Shown: piece after piece, positions 446 to 47,179 of the stretch
How the letters are laid out: the number at the start of each line of letters is the position of its first letter
Numbering within the stretch: the first letter of the stretch is position 1
Source: Fimbriimonadales bacterium
GTDB lineage: Bacteria > Armatimonadota > Fimbriimonadia > Fimbriimonadales > ATM1
Direction: 5' to 3'
Assembly: GCA_041744215.1 (NCBI GenBank)
Contig: JBGTLG010000004.1
Location: 1-64,000 of the forward strand
DNA: 64,000 nucleotides
Notes under the pieces: model-generated
What the model saw: only the letters and a program-made list of their open reading frames with translations
Database searches by the model: none
Told to the model about the DNA's origin: nothing
Program-made: the position numbers and the translations under genes

Positions 446-518
446 TGAGCCGTGTAGGGATCGAACCTACGACAAGCTGATTAAGAGTCAGCTGCTCTAC
501 CAACTGAGCTAACGCCCC
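446..518 (-). tRNA. tRNA-Lys(CTT), acceptor stem imperfect, no encoded CCA
   Basis: Reverse complement is GGGGCGTTAGCTCAGTTGGTAGAGCAGCTGACTCTTAATCAGCTTGTCGTAGGTTCGATCCCTACACGGCTCA. D, anticodon (CTT) and T arms are intact. G4.G69 is mismatched. Confidence 0.93.
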
Positions 519-20940: not shown

Positions 20941-22998
20941 ATGCGAACTCTCGAGCGATTTCTAAAGCATACGGACATCCTGCTTGCGGTGGGAATACTG
21001 GCGATCGTCGCCATGCTCATTCTCCCGATTCCGCATTGGTTTCTCGATGCCATGCTTGTGCTGAGCATCGCGTCGGCTGTCGTCATAGCTCTGATCGCCA
21101 CAAACGTTAGCACCCCACTCCAATTCAGCACCTTTCCGTCGATCCTGCTGCTGACAACGCTGCTTCGCCTCGCACTAAGCATCGCTGCAACGAAGCTGAT
21201 CTTAGGCACCGCCAGTGCTGGGTCGGTGATCCAGACGTTTGGACAGTTCGTCATGGGCGGGGACTTCGTGGTTGGCATCGTAGCGTTCCTCATCCTTGTG
21301 ATTGTGCAGTTTGTTGTCATCACGAATGGTGCAGGTCGTGTGTCGGAAGTCGTTGCGAGGTTCACGCTCGATGCGATGCCTGGCAAACAGATGGCAATCG
21401 ATGCCGACCTCAACGCAGGGCTGATTACGGAGCCCGAAGCGAGACAGCGCCGCCAGGAAATCAAGCAGGAAGCAGACTTTTACGGTGCAATGGACGGTGC
21501 GAGCAAATTCATCAAAGGTGATGCGATCGCATCTATCTTGATTATCATCGTCAACATCATCGGCGGTGTCGTGATTGGATTCATGAAGAATCAAGGATCG
21601 ATCATGGACATTCTGCAAACCTATGCTTTGCTTAGCGTGGGAGAGGGTCTTGTCTCTCAGATTCCCGCTCTGCTTATCAGCACCTCTGCGGGACTTATGG
21701 TGACCCGATCTGGACAGGAGAGCGGGATGGGCACTGCGGTGCTAACCCAGATTTTCGGCCAACCGAAAGCGATGCTTGGCGCCGCGATTATCCTCGCAGC
21801 GATGGGGCTAGTTCCTGGATTCCCAACTTTGATTTTCTTCTTCTTTGCTGCAATTGCTTTCATGGTGTACCGAATTGTCGACAAGGGCGTCCCTCAAACG
21901 GCGAAGCAGAAAGAGCAAAAAGCGGAAGAGGCAAAGCAAGTCGCAGCCCCTTCGGGTCCGGAGTCAGTTCTGCCACTCCTCAATGTGGATCCGATCGAGT
22001 TAGAAATCGGTTATGGTCTTACTCGATTAGCAGATCCAAGACAAGGCGGCGATCTCACGCAGAGAGTCACCGCGGTTAGGCGTCAGCTGGCGATGGAGCT
22101 TGGGTTCGTGATGCCGAGCGTACGCATCCGAGACAATATGCAACTCGGAGCGAACGATTACGTTGTACGGATTCGCGGCGAAGAGGTAGCGCGCGCTCAA
22201 GCCTTCCCTGACTCGTGTCTGGCGATCGAAGGGGGCGTAGTGCTCAATCCTATTGCGGGAAGCCAGACAAAAGACCCTGTTTTCGGAATCGACGCGCTTT
22301 GGATTGACGCCAACCAGCGAGAGCAAGCTGAGCGTAGCGGCTACACCGTGATCGAACCGAACTCTATGATCAGCACACATCTAAGCGAGATTGTCAAGGC
22401 TCATTCCGCAGAGTTGCTGAGCAGACAAGACGTTCAATCTCTCATGGATAATGTCAAAGAGCACAACGCAGCTGTTGTTGAGGAGTTGGTGCCCGCGCGT
22501 ATGTCGCTAGGAGAGGTTCAAAAGGTATTGCAGCATTTGCTACGCGAGCGAGTGCCAATTCGCGACATGGTCACAATCTTGGAAACGCTCGCAGACTTTG
22601 CGGAACGAATCAAGGAACCCGATCAGTTAGGTGAGATTGTGCGCGCTTCTATCTCGCGTACCATCACCCGCCAACATATGGATGATGGCGGCAAGATGTA
22701 CTGCATAACCGTTGATCCACAGCTTGGCAAGTCACTTGCAGAGCAGTTGCAACAGACGCCGTACGGCGCTACGCTGGCGCTGGATCCAGAATCCACCGAA
22801 CGGCTGGTTCGTTCTGTCGCTGCAGAGACGGATCGTTCGACGTCGCTCGGTCATCCCGCAGTCGTATTGACGGGGAACACAATTCGGTTGCCGCTGAAGA
22901 GGCTTTTGGAACGGCACGCCGTTCAAACGCCGGTCCTTGCTTACAATGAAGTCGCAGCGAGCGCGGACGTCGAGTTTATTGGGCAGGTCGCTGCTTAA
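20941..22998 (+). CDS. flhA: Flagellar biosynthesis protein FlhA
   Basis: ARFTLDAMPGKQMAIDADL, FYGAMDGASKF.KGDA, GLVSQIPAL. Confidence 0.97.
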   Translation: MRTLERFLKHTDILLAVGILAIVAMLILPIPHWFLDAMLVLSIASAVVIALIATNVSTPLQFSTFPSILLLTTLLRLALSIAATKLILGTASAGSVIQTFGQFVMGGDFVVGIVAFLILVIVQFVVITNGAGRVSEVVARFTLDAMPGKQMAIDADLNAGLITEPEARQRRQEIKQEADFYGAMDGASKFIKGDAIASILIIIVNIIGGVVIGFMKNQGSIMDILQTYALLSVGEGLVSQIPALLISTSAGLMVTRSGQESGMGTAVLTQIFGQPKAMLGAAIILAAMGLVPGFPTLIFFFFAAIAFMVYRIVDKGVPQTAKQKEQKAEEAKQVAAPSGPESVLPLLNVDPIELEIGYGLTRLADPRQGGDLTQRVTAVRRQLAMELGFVMPSVRIRDNMQLGANDYVVRIRGEEVARAQAFPDSCLAIEGGVVLNPIAGSQTKDPVFGIDALWIDANQREQAERSGYTVIEPNSMISTHLSEIVKAHSAELLSRQDVQSLMDNVKEHNAAVVEELVPARMSLGEVQKVLQHLLRERVPIRDMVTILETLADFAERIKEPDQLGEIVRASISRTITRQHMDDGGKMYCITVDPQLGKSLAEQLQQTPYGATLALDPESTERLVRSVAAETDRSTSLGHPAVVLTGNTIRLPLKRLLERHAVQTPVLAYNEVAASADVEFIGQVAA

Positions 22999-23867
22999 GT
23001 CGAGAAGAAGTCCTTGTGTTTGCGCCGTTGCGCAATGAACCTTAGCTTCCGTAACGCCTGGATCTCGATTTGACGAATGCGCTCCCGCGAGAGGTTTAGA
23101 TCTTCACTAAGATCACGGAGCATGGATGGCTCACACGTTTCTTCCAAGCCCAATCGACGGCGCATGATCCTGCGTTCTCGCTCAGAGAGATCCTCCATGA
23201 GCTCATTCAGCTCGTCCAGCGTTTCGCGATTGATGGCGTGCAGTTCGGGATCCGACTCTCCGTTATCTGATAGCACCGACACCAGCGTCGTGTGATCATC
23301 TTTTCCGACTACAACATCTAGGGAGATTGGTTCGCGGGACGACTGGAGCAAACTCATTAGTTTGCGAACGGTGATACCGAGCGCAGCTGCGATCTCATCC
23401 GCACTGGCATCGCGGCCCAATTCACACCGCAAGCGAAGTCGCTCACGTTCTACCTTGCGGATCATCTCAGAGACGTGTGCGGGCAGTCGAATCGCCTTCG
23501 CCTTGTAGTCGAGGGCTCGTCCGATCGTTTGGCGAATCCAGTGGGTTGCATAAGTGCTGAAGCGATAGCCGCGATCTGGGTCAAATCGATCGACAGCATT
23601 CATGAGCCCGATAGCACCCTCCTGAATGAGGTCCTCAAACGGGATCGATCGGTTGCGATAGTGTTTCGCAATGTTAACGACGAGACGCATGTTCGCTTCG
23701 ATCAAGCGCTTCTTGGCAGATTCATCTCCTCGCTTGACGCGCTTTGCCAACTCCCTCTCCTCATCTGGAGTCAAGAGTGGTATCTGCGTCAGGCGCGACA
23801 GATACGACGGAATTCCGTCGCTGTGCGCGCCTCCCCTCTCTTCTGGGGGACCTGCCGGTTGTTGCAT
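22995..23867 (-). CDS. RpoD/RpoS-like (group 2) sigma-70 factor
   Basis: Region 1.2 YL..L..IPLL, ANMRLVV.IAK.Y, DLIQEG.IGL, FSTYATHWIRQ, SRERIRQIE..AL.KL. No region 1.1. Start placed at the ATG after a GGAG SD. Confidence 0.92.
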   Translation of the reverse strand: MQQPAGPPEERGGAHSDGIPSYLSRLTQIPLLTPDEERELAKRVKRGDESAKKRLIEANMRLVVNIAKHYRNRSIPFEDLIQEGAIGLMNAVDRFDPDRGYRFSTYATHWIRQTIGRALDYKAKAIRLPAHVSEMIRKVERERLRLRCELGRDASADEIAAALGITVRKLMSLLQSSREPISLDVVVGKDDHTTLVSVLSDNGESDPELHAINRETLDELNELMEDLSERERRIMRRRLGLEETCEPSMLRDLSEDLNLSRERIRQIEIQALRKLRFIAQRRKHKDFFST

Positions 23868-24067
23868 CAAACTCTCCGCTACCGGCCCCATCGCCCTGTC
23901 CTTGCGATAAGCACCGTTACGGTCAGCAGGCACACGTCCCTATGTGCCGGGCCGTCCAGCAAGCAATATACGTGCCAGCCAGGCTTCTTGCGTCTGGAAG
24001 TAGCGATTCTGCCGTCAAGGGCCCAGTGGCCGCTGAACCGGCGAGAGGCGCGCCCTCCTGTGGGTTG

Positions 24068-24126: not shown

Positions 24127-25110
24127 ATGAACGAGAAGGACTTCGTTGCCAGGAGAAAGGGCGACTGGGACCGACTACTGATCCTGATTGACGCCTCGGA
24201 GGCGAGCATTGGCTCACTTTCGGGGGCGCAGGTGAGGGAGTTTGGGCGTCTCTACCGCCGAGTAGCTAGCGACCTCGCCTACGTTCGAACTCACTCCGCA
24301 AACCGCTCTATCGAGGGCTTTCTCAACGACTTGATCGCTCGCGGCCACGGCGTCTTGTATCGACACCCCCGCACGCCAATTGGGCAGGCGGTTGTCACCT
24401 TCTTCAGGGAGGCAGCTTCCGCCGTTAGGCGAAGGCAAGTCTTCATCTACGCCGCAATACTGGTGACTTTGCTGTCTGCGGCTTTTGCCGCTGATGCAGT
24501 CAGGAAAGACGAGACCTTGCTCGACACAGTTTTGCCGGCTGGGTTCGAAGGTGCGCTTGAGCATTGGAAGTCGAAGCAGTTCGAAGATCGCAGCGGCGAT
24601 CAGAACCTGGGGATGACCGGCTTTTATGTGTGGAACAATACGATGGCTACCCTGATGGTTGCCGCCGGTGGCGTGACCTTTGGGATGACTTCACTCTACT
24701 CTTTGTACATGAACGGTGCGATGCTGGGCGCATTCGTGGTCGAGATGCAGAAGGTTGGCGGTCTAGGGCACTTTCTTGGTGGGATCGCGGCCCATGGCGT
24801 CTCGGAGTTGGGCGGGATCTTCATCGCTGGGTCGGCTGGGTTCGTGATGGCATTCTCGCTCATCAATCCGGGTCGTCGCACGCGCGGTCAATCGCTAAGG
24901 AAGGCTGGGAAGGACGCGGTCTATCTAATCGGCATCGGCGTCCTGATGATTTGGGTAGCGGCGCCTATCGAGGGATGGATCAGCTTCGTTGACAGTGTGC
25001 CGATGTCGCTGAAGCTGGCTATCGCGTTCGTCACTTTCGTTGGGTGGATGCTTCTGTTCACGTTTGTTGGGCGCGATTTAGACCAGACGCGGCGTTTGGA
25101 ATCGGCCTGA
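24127..25110 (+). CDS. Stage II sporulation protein M (SpoIIM/DUF95) family membrane protein
   Basis: YR....DLAY..T, NN, NG.MLG, HG.SEL, AA.IEG.IS. Confidence 0.85.
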   Translation: MNEKDFVARRKGDWDRLLILIDASEASIGSLSGAQVREFGRLYRRVASDLAYVRTHSANRSIEGFLNDLIARGHGVLYRHPRTPIGQAVVTFFREAASAVRRRQVFIYAAILVTLLSAAFAADAVRKDETLLDTVLPAGFEGALEHWKSKQFEDRSGDQNLGMTGFYVWNNTMATLMVAAGGVTFGMTSLYSLYMNGAMLGAFVVEMQKVGGLGHFLGGIAAHGVSELGGIFIAGSAGFVMAFSLINPGRRTRGQSLRKAGKDAVYLIGIGVLMIWVAAPIEGWISFVDSVPMSLKLAIAFVTFVGWMLLFTFVGRDLDQTRRLESA

Positions 25111-25138
25111 AGGGGCTTGAGCCCCCAAAATCAGGCAG

Positions 25139-25147
25139 TGGTATAAT
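25139..25147 (+). promoter_or_regulatory. Extended -10 sigma70 promoter of the speD-speE leader
   Basis: TGgTATAAT; TTGAGC at 25117-25122 with a 19-nt spacer. Confidence 0.6.
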
Positions 25148-25204
25148 TCGCGCTCGCCGCCGAAACCCTATCGGACAAGAAGGCAGGGGCGGTTCTCACG
25201 CAAG

Positions 25205-25330
25205 ATGATGAATCAAGCGTTTTCGACTTTGGCCAGCCGGTTGCTAAGCTTTGAAGCGACCGGGGTTGGGTCGGCGCGTGGGCGCCTTTGCCATTGCCTG
25301 ATAGGAGGGACTTGGCGATGTATTTGCTAA
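25205..25330 (+). CDS. Putative leader peptide (uORF, 41 aa) overlapping the speD start
   Basis: MMNQAFSTLASRLLSFEATGVGSARGRLCHCLIGGTWRCIC*, inside a long structured leader. Confidence 0.4.
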   Translation: MMNQAFSTLASRLLSFEATGVGSARGRLCHCLIGGTWRCIC

Positions 25331-25926
25331 CGGGCTTTGCCTTGTGCTTCGTCCTGTTTGTGGTCGCCAGGCCGCGGACTTTTCCCCTGGCGAAACTGGG
25401 CCGTGTGTTGCGGCGCCTCTTTATGAAGAGCCAAGCTCTGGAACCAGTCCAGGTTGACGACGGCTGGACCGTTATTCCGGGAGAGGATCCAAGGCAGTTT
25501 TGCGAGTGGATCCACGACGACGATTTCAAAAGACCGCAGTGGGATGGTGTTGAGCCGTCATTAGGCTGCCATGTTCTCATCGAAATGTATGGCTGCGATC
25601 CAGAGATGCTTGAGATCGAGGAGAAGGTCAGTTTTGCGATGAACGACGCGGCGGCTCGCAGCGAAGCCACTGTGGTTACAAGTTCCTTTCATGAGTTCAA
25701 GCCATACGGCGTGTCGGGCGCAGTGATCATTCAGGAGTCGCACTACACGATTCACACTTGGCCTGAGCATCGATACGCAGCGATCGACCTCTTCTATTGC
25801 GGCGAGTCCGTCTTAGTTGATGAAGCAGTGCGGGCCCTTCGAGAACACTTCAAACCCACAAAGACACGGTTTCTTGTTGTTCGAAGGGGTCTACAGTCTG
25901 AAGTGGAAAAGGAATCACTAGCTTAA
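25318..25926 (+). CDS. speD: S-adenosylmethionine decarboxylase proenzyme (class 1B) with N-terminal extension
   Basis: LG.HVLIE.YGC, F.P.GVSG..II.ESH.TIHTWPE..YAAID.F.CG. SD AGGAGG at 25303-25308 precedes ATG25318; alternative ATG at 25423. Confidence 0.92.
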   Translation: MYLLTGFALCFVLFVVARPRTFPLAKLGRVLRRLFMKSQALEPVQVDDGWTVIPGEDPRQFCEWIHDDDFKRPQWDGVEPSLGCHVLIEMYGCDPEMLEIEEKVSFAMNDAAARSEATVVTSSFHEFKPYGVSGAVIIQESHYTIHTWPEHRYAAIDLFYCGESVLVDEAVRALREHFKPTKTRFLVVRRGLQSEVEKESLA

Positions 25927-25932
25927 ATCACC

Positions 25933-26853
25933 ATGTCATTTTCACAGCGTACAGGGATGTTCATCAGCGAAACTCACACCGATGCGATGGAGTGGTGTTT
26001 CACCGTCGAGAAGATGCTTGTGGAAGGGAAGACGAAGTTTCAGGAGTATCAAATCTGCGAAATTCCGAGATTCGGCAAAACGCTTTTTCTTGACTACTGC
26101 ATTCAAACAAGCGCGCTCGACGAACACATCTTCCATGAGTGTATGAGCTGCCCTGCGATGACGACTCACCCAAATCCCAAGAAGGTGTTCGTTGCAGGCG
26201 GAGGAGAGGGCGCAACGCTCAGAGAGGCGCTCGCACACAACACCGTCGAGAAAGCGGTGATGGTGGACATAGACGATGAACTCGTCGCGATGGTGAGAGA
26301 ACATATGCCCGAATGGCCAAAGGGCTCGTTCGAGGATCCGCGAACGACCCTTCTGCACATGGATGCGCGGAAGTATCTCGAAGAAACAGATGAGAAATTC
26401 GACGTCATCCTGAGCGATCTTCCCGATCCGCTGGAGGGCGGTCCAGCGGTATACCTGTTCACGAAAGAGTACTTCGAGCTATGCATGGATCGCCTGACCG
26501 ACGACGGGGTGTTTGCAATGCAGGCAGGTTGCGCAAACATGAACTATCCCGATTGCTTTGCCGCTTGCCTATCGACGGTCAAGGAAGTCTTCCCCATTGT
26601 TCGCCCCTACTGGGCGATTATCACGACGTTTCTTGTGCCGTGGGCATTCATTCTTTGCAGCAAGAAGCACGACCCGCTCGACCTAACGCAGGAAGAGATC
26701 GCCAAGCGATTCTCACAGCGCGGAGTTACGAACAGATACTACACACCGAGGTTTCATCAGAGCGTCTTCACGATCCCCGATTACCTGTACCAGGCAGCAG
26801 AAGAGAAGGGCCAAATCATGACTGACGCACAGCCTTTCATCTGGACAGCATAA
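25933..26853 (+). CDS. speE: Polyamine aminopropyltransferase (GGGEG type)
   Basis: T.FQ, FGK.L.LD, GGGEGATLRE, MVDID, D..DP; follows speD. Confidence 0.9.
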   Translation: MSFSQRTGMFISETHTDAMEWCFTVEKMLVEGKTKFQEYQICEIPRFGKTLFLDYCIQTSALDEHIFHECMSCPAMTTHPNPKKVFVAGGGEGATLREALAHNTVEKAVMVDIDDELVAMVREHMPEWPKGSFEDPRTTLLHMDARKYLEETDEKFDVILSDLPDPLEGGPAVYLFTKEYFELCMDRLTDDGVFAMQAGCANMNYPDCFAACLSTVKEVFPIVRPYWAIITTFLVPWAFILCSKKHDPLDLTQEEIAKRFSQRGVTNRYYTPRFHQSVFTIPDYLYQAAEEKGQIMTDAQPFIWTA

Positions 26854-44824: not shown

Positions 44825-44901
<77 letters not shown>

Positions 44902-47101: not shown

Positions 47102-47179
47102 CGGGGCGTAGCGCAGCCTGGTTAGCGCGCCTGCTTTGGGAGCAGGAGGTCGCGAGTTCGAATCTCGCCGCCCCGACCA
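47102..47179 (+). tRNA. tRNA-Pro(TGG)
   Basis: CGGGGCGTAGCGCAGCCTGGTTAGCGCGCCTGCTTTGGGAGCAGGAGGTCGCGAGTTCGAATCTCGCCGCCCCGACCA. Confidence 0.96.

Follow-up and report, generated by a model that had tools for sequence, protein, structure and literature searches.

The speD gene of a Fimbriimonadales bacterium (Armatimonadota) encodes S-adenosylmethionine decarboxylase (AdoMetDC) and is preceded by a leader of about 165 nucleotides (nt), in which a short upstream open reading frame (uORF) runs through a predicted long hairpin that pairs with the Shine-Dalgarno (SD) region and the start codon of speD. We analysed this leader within a window of 64,000 nt, i.e., the whole stretch of DNA under study (positions 1 to 64,000 of the forward strand of contig JBGTLG010000004.1, assembly GCA_041744215.1). 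With somewhat better than even confidence, we regard it as a leader that acts in cis on the translation of speD(-speE), that is specific to one clade of Fimbriimonadales and in which translation of the uORF unzips the hairpin sequestering the ribosome-binding site (RBS) and couples the translation of speD to its own. A first-pass annotation made from the letters of the window had described a leader open reading frame (ORF) plus an anti-SD element controlling speD(-speE) translation, which is a fair description, since hairpin, anti-SD pairing and uORF are all conserved. The features concerned, some of them defined by minimum free energy (MFE) folds, are the following:

25139-25147 (+): -10 box with upstream TG (TGGTATAAT), from the sequence and aligned in relatives
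25153-25317 (+): speD leader RNA (class A), predicted to form one long rod-like hairpin (MFE, z-scores, covariation, strand-swap test)
25156-25161 (+): segment 1, GCCGCC, 5' strand of the basal helix; GCCG is invariant (four of six positions in the alignment)
25167-25174 (+): anti-SD stretch CCTATCGG within the 5' interior (25162-25187), paired with 25298-25305 in the MFE fold
25188-25193 (+): segment 2, GGCGGT; GCGG is invariant (four of six positions)
25195-25200 (+): 5' arm of helix P2, CTCACG, 5 nt before the uORF ATG, pairing with 25277-25282
25205-25330 (+): uORF, 41 codons plus TAA (25328-25330), in the +1 frame, overlapping the SD and start of speD (ORF list)
25237-25263 (+): apical hairpin of CCGGTTGCT (25237-25245) and AGCGACCGG (25255-25263), from the MFE fold; variable in relatives
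25265-25275 (+): P4 mini-hairpin (GTTG-GGT-CGGC), four pairs, 95.8% of cells paired
25277-25282 (+): 3' arm of P2, CGTGGG, within the uORF (alignment covariation, MFE folds)
25283-25286 (+): segment 3, CGCC, within the uORF, part of the invariant GGGCGCC block
25298-25308 (+): SD region of speD, CTGATAGG (25298-25305) overlapping AGGAGG (25303-25308); GGAGG is invariant
25314-25317 (+): segment 4, GGCG, immediately 5' of the speD start codon, conserved in the alignment
25318-25926 (+): speD, S-adenosylmethionine decarboxylase proenzyme, 202 amino acids (aa); Pfam AdoMet_dc at residues 85-191, E = 4.9e-37
25933-26853 (+): speE, spermidine synthase; Pfam Spermine_synth, E = 3.4e-43

In the window, the MFE fold of 25139-25330 is a single long hairpin of -78.6 kcal/mol (z = -2.22, with 3 of 200 shuffles as good), and for the stretch from the presumed transcription start to +14 the z-score amounts to -3.23 (1/200 shuffles as good). 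All stretches to which the first-pass annotation had assigned a partner lie where it had put them: CCTATCGG is complementary to CTGATAGG, TCGCC (25154-25158) pairs with GGCGA (25314-25318) and so reaches as far as the A of the speD ATG, and CTCACGC (25195-25201) pairs with GCGTGGG (25276-25282). Alternatively, segment 1 can pair locally with segment 2. The start codon of speD is the ATG at 25318, 9 nt downstream of the AGGAGG, an assignment that is backed by full-length homologues of about 200 aa in a protein search and an alignment.

For comparison, one genome per species was scanned for relatives of speD, which yielded 376 confirmed loci, and the comparisons reported here use the best 80 of these 376 (named with L numbers). 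Among the best 80 loci, 11 Fimbriimonadales loci carry a leader of the same kind as the window, 40 carry a class B1 leader and 19 a class C2 leader, while three are intermediate (C1) and seven unclear. Class A, i.e., the window plus the 11 loci, thus comprises 12 sequences from eight lineages in two subgroups, A1 (the window and L001-L005) and A2 (L011, L020, L031, L043, L058 and L071). In a quick tree, the class-A SpeD proteins, whose identities go down to about 50%, form one clade with a value of 99 in the Shimodaira-Hasegawa-like approximate likelihood ratio test (SH-aLRT), and leader class tracks SpeD clade. A covariance model of class A (R1) retrieves exactly its 12 training members from the window and the 80 loci, with a single copy in the window; on this ground we rejected the idea that class A is homologous to the leaders of B and C, to which similarities in GGGTT-type motifs were seen by eye only. 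Two of the loci, L012 and L039, are labelled as Methyloversatilis (Pseudomonadota) and as a Methanoregulaceae archaeon, but their speD loci are near-identical to those of the Armatimonadota L013 and L037, and they are probably mis-binned contigs.

The hairpin is kept throughout class A. Folding z-scores are negative in all 12 leaders (mean -2.08), and the helices P1, P2, P4 and P5 are paired in 93.8% of the cells of the 12-sequence alignment, as compared to 35-57% once the partners are slid. In four pairs both sides have changed, and the covariation score was reached by none of 500 shuffles. Compensatory changes between A1 and A2 are found in two of the six pairs of P2 and in the closing pair of the P4 mini-hairpin, which is G-C in A1 and C-G in A2. 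Among the MFE folds of the 12 leaders, segment 4 pairs with segment 1 in 10 and segment 3 with segment 2 in 11, P2 is formed in 10, at least three of the six SD columns are paired with the 5' interior in 11, and at least one base of the speD start codon is paired in every case.

The interiors of the hairpin defy column-by-column alignment, and a strand-swap test with eight lineage representatives was therefore applied to them. Cognate 5' and 3' interiors pair with -16.75 kcal/mol, non-cognate ones with -11.46 +/- 3.66 kcal/mol (permutation p = 0.0003). The two strands of the hairpin co-evolve, and the advantage of 5.3 kcal/mol of cognate over swapped interiors supports the anti-SD pairing. A local consensus consisting of P1 and P5 (RNAalifold) was rejected as the main structure, because the rod is more stable by 8-22 kcal/mol; the sole singleton compensatory change of P1+P5 (L031) fits the rod too, and the local fold is possibly a transient conformer. 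The long hairpin and the anti-SD pairing of the first-pass annotation have stood up to comparison.

The uORF is conserved as a reading frame. Its existence, its 41 codons and its end 13 nt inside speD, all noted in the first-pass annotation, are borne out by the ORF list, and every one of the 12 class-A leaders has, at the same AU-rich place, an ATG that starts a frame of 36-47 codons. This frame contains no in-frame stop before its end in any of them, whereas each of the other two frames contains one to five. The uORF stop falls at +11 to +13 of speD in 12/12 leaders, with TAA, TAG and TGA all in use, and its position relies on CTA or GTA at codon 4 of speD in six of the eight lineages. The distance from the ATG to an invariant GGGTC is 48, 51, 63, 66 or 81 nt, that from GGGTC to the speD start is 47 or 50 nt, and the frame is always kept; all seven distinct segment lengths are frame-preserving, for which the chance is roughly 0.004 if each independent change has a probability of 1/3. 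The length of the apical hairpin likewise varies among relatives in multiples of 3 nt. Dinucleotide shuffles are stop-free in 19-45% of cases, depending on the sequence. The region around the upstream AUG is computed to be unpaired with a value of 0.49, as compared to 0.31 for the whole leader and 0.25 for the speD RBS, and it is AU-rich in 12/12 leaders; no part of the leader is richer in AU or less paired than the one that holds the uORF start.

The first-pass annotation had suggested looking for codon-level conservation of the uORF peptide, and this was not found. Variable sites are distributed over the three codon positions as 18/20/22 in A1 and 13/12/14 in A2, i.e., without any third-position excess, and columns with synonymous variation only make up 4/26 in A1 and 4/21 in A2. 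A block G(V/L)GS(A/S)xGR(L/H) is present 12-13 codons before the uORF stop in all 12 leaders; the non-conservative replacements V-to-L, A-to-S and R-to-V that distinguish its A1 and A2 versions are the compensatory base changes of P4 and P2. The last residues ahead of the stop are set by the overlapping codons of speD and differ among the leaders (C, L, G, M), while an MNTLG N-terminus with synonymous differences occurs in L004 and several A2 members. The even spread over codon positions and the helix-driven replacements point to selection on translation that reaches the speD start and not on the product, so that, judged from the alignments, the act of translation appears to be under selection rather than the peptide.

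These observations suggest the following sequence of events. The first ~45 nt of the leader would pair with its last ~45 nt, leaving the SD flank, the GGCG in front of the speD ATG and some of the ATG itself base-paired. Ribosomes would initiate the uORF in the AU-rich, weakly paired bulge of the 5' strand just inside P2, and the uORF would take them over the tip, down the whole 3' strand and across the SD and ATG of speD. On their way they would open up the hairpin, and they would terminate right over the speD start. Translation of speD would then follow either from re-initiation at the strong SD and the ATG, which lies 11 nt further upstream, or from new initiation while the site is transiently open. 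In class A, the uORF stops near the main start (12/12) and an SD (AGGAGG or GGAGG) lies 9 nt before the ATG or GTG of speD, as is expected of translational coupling. Uptake of ribosomes by the uORF would be set by the openness of P2 and of the rod, and SpeD output would follow; candidate inputs are stabilization of the helices by polyamines or Mg2+, a specific ligand, or ribosome pausing. Expression of speD would then depend on uORF translation.

Several observations weigh against such a coupling leader. The sample is small, with 12 sequences in eight lineages and two subgroups, most of the compensatory changes fall on the single split between A1 and A2, and four of the 12 leaders have z-scores weaker than -1.5. 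For the SD, the probability of being unpaired (0.00-0.53) is no different from that obtained when the upstream part of the leaders is shuffled. The uORF stop, 13 nt inside speD, lies further from the start than is typical of overlapping stop/start couples. No SD-like motif was found upstream of the uORF ATG; this weighs less in view of a crude census, spurious ORFs included, in which 26 of 62 long ORFs of the window also lack an SD-like motif, suggesting that SD-less starts are common in this genome. Finally, when ribosome footprints upstream of the RBS were masked in an equilibrium folding simulation, RBS accessibility stayed at 0.1-0.4 and hardly changed, so that only passage of the ribosome through the site, and not a relay from a distance, fits equilibrium folding. 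An erm-like relay by a ribosome paused upstream was discarded because it had no effect in this simulation. Two further candidates fell as well: codon-run attenuation, as the 12 peptides contain no conserved run of Met or Arg codons, and a uORF-SpeD fusion by frameshift or read-through. The latter was dropped by argument, since the uORF is in the +1 frame, the last codon offers no slippery context for a -1 slip, and the product would carry about 40 residues before the hydrophobic N-terminus.

The main competitor at the RNA level is a switch that needs no translation of the ORF, i.e., a riboswitch or a hairpin on the speD SD and start that is sensitive to polyamines, Mg2+ or temperature, with the ORF as an untranslated by-product of stop-poor, GC-rich RNA. 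The conserved structure with its invariant GC-rich segments would suit it, no SD precedes the uORF, 19-45% of shuffles contain no stop in any case, and the class C2 leaders described below are riboswitch-like, contain no ATG-initiated uORF and hold long open frames without an ATG. It would leave unexplained, however, why all seven segment lengths keep the frame, why three different stop codons hold the stop at +11 to +13 and why a conserved ATG sits in an accessible AU-rich bulge; in addition, class B1 has an independent uORF with the same end point, few unpaired nucleotides are conserved in the manner of an aptamer, and no Rfam family matches. We therefore consider a purely RNA-level switch unlikely. 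The first-pass annotation had inferred a polyamine-sensing switch that is perhaps peptide-based, and an arrest peptide would indeed be able to stall the ribosome with spermidine or another metabolite and thereby open or block the speD start. The strictly kept class-A frame, the block before the stop in all 12 leaders and the synonymous differences in the codons for MNTLG in L004 and several A2 members are what such a sensor would predict, and a ribosome held at the uORF stop would occlude the speD initiation site. A peptide-based switch is nonetheless disfavoured by the even variation over codon positions and by the fact that the replacements R-to-V, A-to-S and V-to-L sit where P2 and P4 need compensatory bases. 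Moreover, the last residues vary as the overlapping speD codons require, the B1 uORF switches frame between close relatives so that its C-terminal half is not conserved, and parking a ribosome upstream fails to open the RBS in silico. Taken together, this makes an arrest-peptide sensor distinctly unlikely.

Transcription attenuation, in which uORF translation would shield the leader from Rho-dependent or other premature termination so that the speD-speE transcript is completed, appears very unlikely. A translated leader ORF that acts through Rho is known from enterobacterial speF, and a long structured leader would be accessible to Rho if it were untranslated. A scan for intrinsic terminators found none in the leader (25139-25317); its sole terminator-like site, at 25400-25414, is internal to speD, and the number of such sites does not exceed that in shuffled sequences. 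With the uORF overlapping the start of speD, there is no untranslated gap for Rho, and the co-evolving pairing takes in the SD and the start of speD, an indication of control at translation. A more far-reaching proposal, which we regard as rather unlikely, sees in the leader a bacterial counterpart of the eukaryotic AdoMetDC uORF, with spermidine (or decarboxylated S-adenosylmethionine or S-adenosylmethionine (SAM)) controlling SpeD via the uORF, with the A, B1 and C2 leaders as alternative sensors, arrived at in evolution, of one and the same metabolite and with C2 as a new riboswitch class for a ligand from the polyamine pathway. The metabolite would either tighten P2 and the rod against uORF initiation or slow termination at the uORF stop.

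The leader was also compared with known RNA families, among which the first-pass annotation had named the ldcC RNA motif as a likeness and had recommended a search that included variants of SAM-I. No Rfam model matched the leader, neither at the gathering score in the window nor at E <= 10 in 24900-25700, where a single chance snoRNA match with E = 5.6 lies on the other strand; the ldcC model is presumably part of Rfam 15. The Rfam matches in the whole window are three tRNA genes only, at 446-518 (-), 44828-44901 (-) and 47102-47176 (+), and the leaders of 20 related loci at gathering thresholds and of four loci at permissive E-values gave no match either. The likeness to ldcC was given up, as there is no covariance-model match and a uORF-bearing rod of ~165 nt stands against a small bulged hairpin with a possible pseudoknot that is reported from Firmicutes and Spirochaetes (PMC5737381), so that the motif differs both in size and in phyla. 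A spermidine riboswitch of the kind reported elsewhere, a SAM-I variant with a terminator as expression platform (PMC10853860), was rejected because no SAM-I or other riboswitch model matches and the leader has no terminator. Both are, like the element described here, cis-regulatory RNAs ahead of polyamine genes including SAM decarboxylase genes.

Class B1 comprises 40 loci within L008-L079 (e.g., L048:2155-2431 and L021:2260-2500) with a different speD leader of ~250 nt that has conserved 5' hairpins and an element AGGAGAGATCC complementary to a downstream GGGTTTCTC, as seen by eye and in MFE folds. Since three loci escaped the motif search, 37 of the 40 were scored. In 35 of these 37, the first ATG past a conserved AGGAGA-type motif opens an ORF of 45-69 codons that reaches the speD start region, the misses being L038 (2 codons) and L079 (no leader ATG); the control frames do so in 6/37 and 15/37, each figure including the mis-scored L079. 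The B1 uORF terminates at position -11, 0 or +22/+26 relative to the start of speD, its frame with respect to speD varies between close relatives, with stops available in all three frames, and speD begins with TTG right after a stop codon, often as ATG-TGA-TTG. The B1 uORF lends independent support to uORF-gated translation.

A third speD leader, class C2 (19 loci, e.g., L010:2243-2491 and L022:2266-2503), contains no ATG-initiated uORF. RNAalifold predicts for 16 C2 sequences a multi-helix fold with 54 pairs, of which 35 change on both sides, and there is complementarity between a conserved GGGTTTCTC and GAGGGAAAC, the SD region. None of the C2 leaders scanned (L007, L010 and L022) matched Rfam, and C2 is a candidate for a new riboswitch-like RNA. 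Within a single order, the leader of this gene thus comes in three designs, with a uORF whose frame is fixed, with a uORF that may be in any frame, or with a riboswitch-like fold and no ATG-initiated uORF. This amounts to a natural experiment on the exchange of cis-regulators and provides a lead to a possible new ligand-sensing RNA.

With regard to the promoter, the first-pass annotation had seen an extended -10 element in front of the leader. Its letters are in place, as TG at 25139-25140 stands one base ahead of TATAAT at 25142-25147, which we take to be an extended -10 box, and a GGTAnnnT box occurs at the aligned position in 12/12 class-A leaders, 151-187 nt upstream of the speD start. A consensus scan for a two-hexamer sigma-70 promoter, on the other hand, found none at the leader, and a clear TTGACA -35 hexamer is present in some class-A relatives. 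Transcription would start at about 25153-25156. The leader itself contains invariant blocks, but the sequences can no longer be aligned upstream of the -10 box. Just past the stop codon of the preceding gene, which is of the SpoIIM family (24127-25110), a GC-rich hairpin GGGGCTTGAGCCCC lies at 25113-25126, 13 nt before the -10 box; it is not followed by a T-run on the + strand and was not reported by the terminator scan. Further upstream of the speD locus are a 685-aa ORF at 20941-22998, taken as flhA from its sequence alone, and a gene of the sigma-70 family at 22995-23933 (-) with Pfam regions 1.2, 2, 3 and 4.

The class-A leader moves with speD and not with speE. In the window, where the gap between the speD stop and speE is 6 nt, and in 5/5 A1 loci, speE lies directly downstream of speD; in A2 it is found 1.5-2 kb downstream (three loci) or lies outside the 2.5-kb flank (three loci). 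The SpoIIM-family gene upstream is common to A1 only (4/5 loci). The identification of speD in the first-pass annotation is confirmed by its AdoMet_dc domain. The protein search returned 932 homologues of SpeD at E <= 0.001; among the 120 of these 932 matches that were listed, most are ~200 aa long, cover most of the query and, where a source is named, come from Fimbriimonadales (Armatimonadota). An N-terminal extension of ~84 aa (25318-25569) precedes the AdoMet_dc domain and is common to the ~200-aa Fimbriimonadales homologues. In an alignment of 32 homologues its N-terminus is conserved as hydrophobic, with a helix at residues ~2-17, and a GW..DD..F..W..DDF block is conserved ahead of the catalytic domain; SpeD may be a membrane-anchored AdoMetDC.

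A full-text literature search retrieved neither a bacterial speD uORF nor an Armatimonadota leader of this kind. The type of mechanism is already known. What appears to be new is the leader family, together with the design in which a sequence-independent uORF passes through the main RBS of a polyamine gene. A uORF that appears to be selected for its translation and is threaded through a co-evolving, RBS-hiding hairpin makes a compact and testable model, with relevance for uORF-gated translation in a phylum that has received little study.

In the erm and cat attenuators of resistance genes, the leader ORF stops before it reaches the RBS of the regulated gene, and the effect is exerted from a distance, via a specific peptide, by a ribosome that the drug has stalled. 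The speD leader resembles them in combining a short leader ORF with alternative GC-rich pairings that hide the regulated SD and start, and in class A the leader ORF is conserved as an ORF (12/12) and the SD and start lie in a conserved helix. It differs in that its ORF extends across the RBS, that the peptide lacks codon-level conservation and that, in the equilibrium model, a distant ribosome does not open the RBS. The enterobacterial speF leader (SpeFL/orf34) relies on an arrest peptide or on the sensing of Arg codons with a Rho-dependent read-out. It too concerns a gene of the polyamine pathway with a translated leader ORF within alternative mRNA structures; there, however, a conserved arrest peptide or Arg-codon sensing and Rho are involved, and we found no similarity to it by sequence or Rfam.

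AdoMetDC catalyses the committed step to spermidine, and the eukaryotic enzyme is a textbook case of uORF control. The eukaryotic AdoMetDC uORFs, i.e., mammalian MAGDIS and those of plants, act via the sequence of their peptide, with stalling that depends on polyamines, in a system based on scanning. Plant AdoMetDC genes are reported to carry conserved peptide uORFs (CPuORFs) (PMC2075485). The gene of the same enzyme thus stands behind a conserved uORF here as well, which suggests translational feedback on polyamine synthesis, but the present system is bacterial, has a co-evolving RNA hairpin and a uORF whose codons show no third-position excess of variation, and the likeness would at most be one of functional convergence. 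A precedent is ppe2 of Mycobacterium tuberculosis, which lies behind a B12 riboswitch. Its expression is reported to require translation of a leader uORF, and termination-reinitiation has been proposed (PMC11260477); uORF coupling and RBS occlusion have also been reported for Sinorhizobium meliloti (PMC13285730). In both ppe2 and speD, a uORF within a structured 5' leader ends close to the main start, and expression of the main gene is proposed to depend on its translation. Compared with ppe2, phylum and gene are different, no aptamer is recognised in the speD leader, and the uORF crosses the main SD and ATG to end 13 nt inside the gene whose expression would depend on it.

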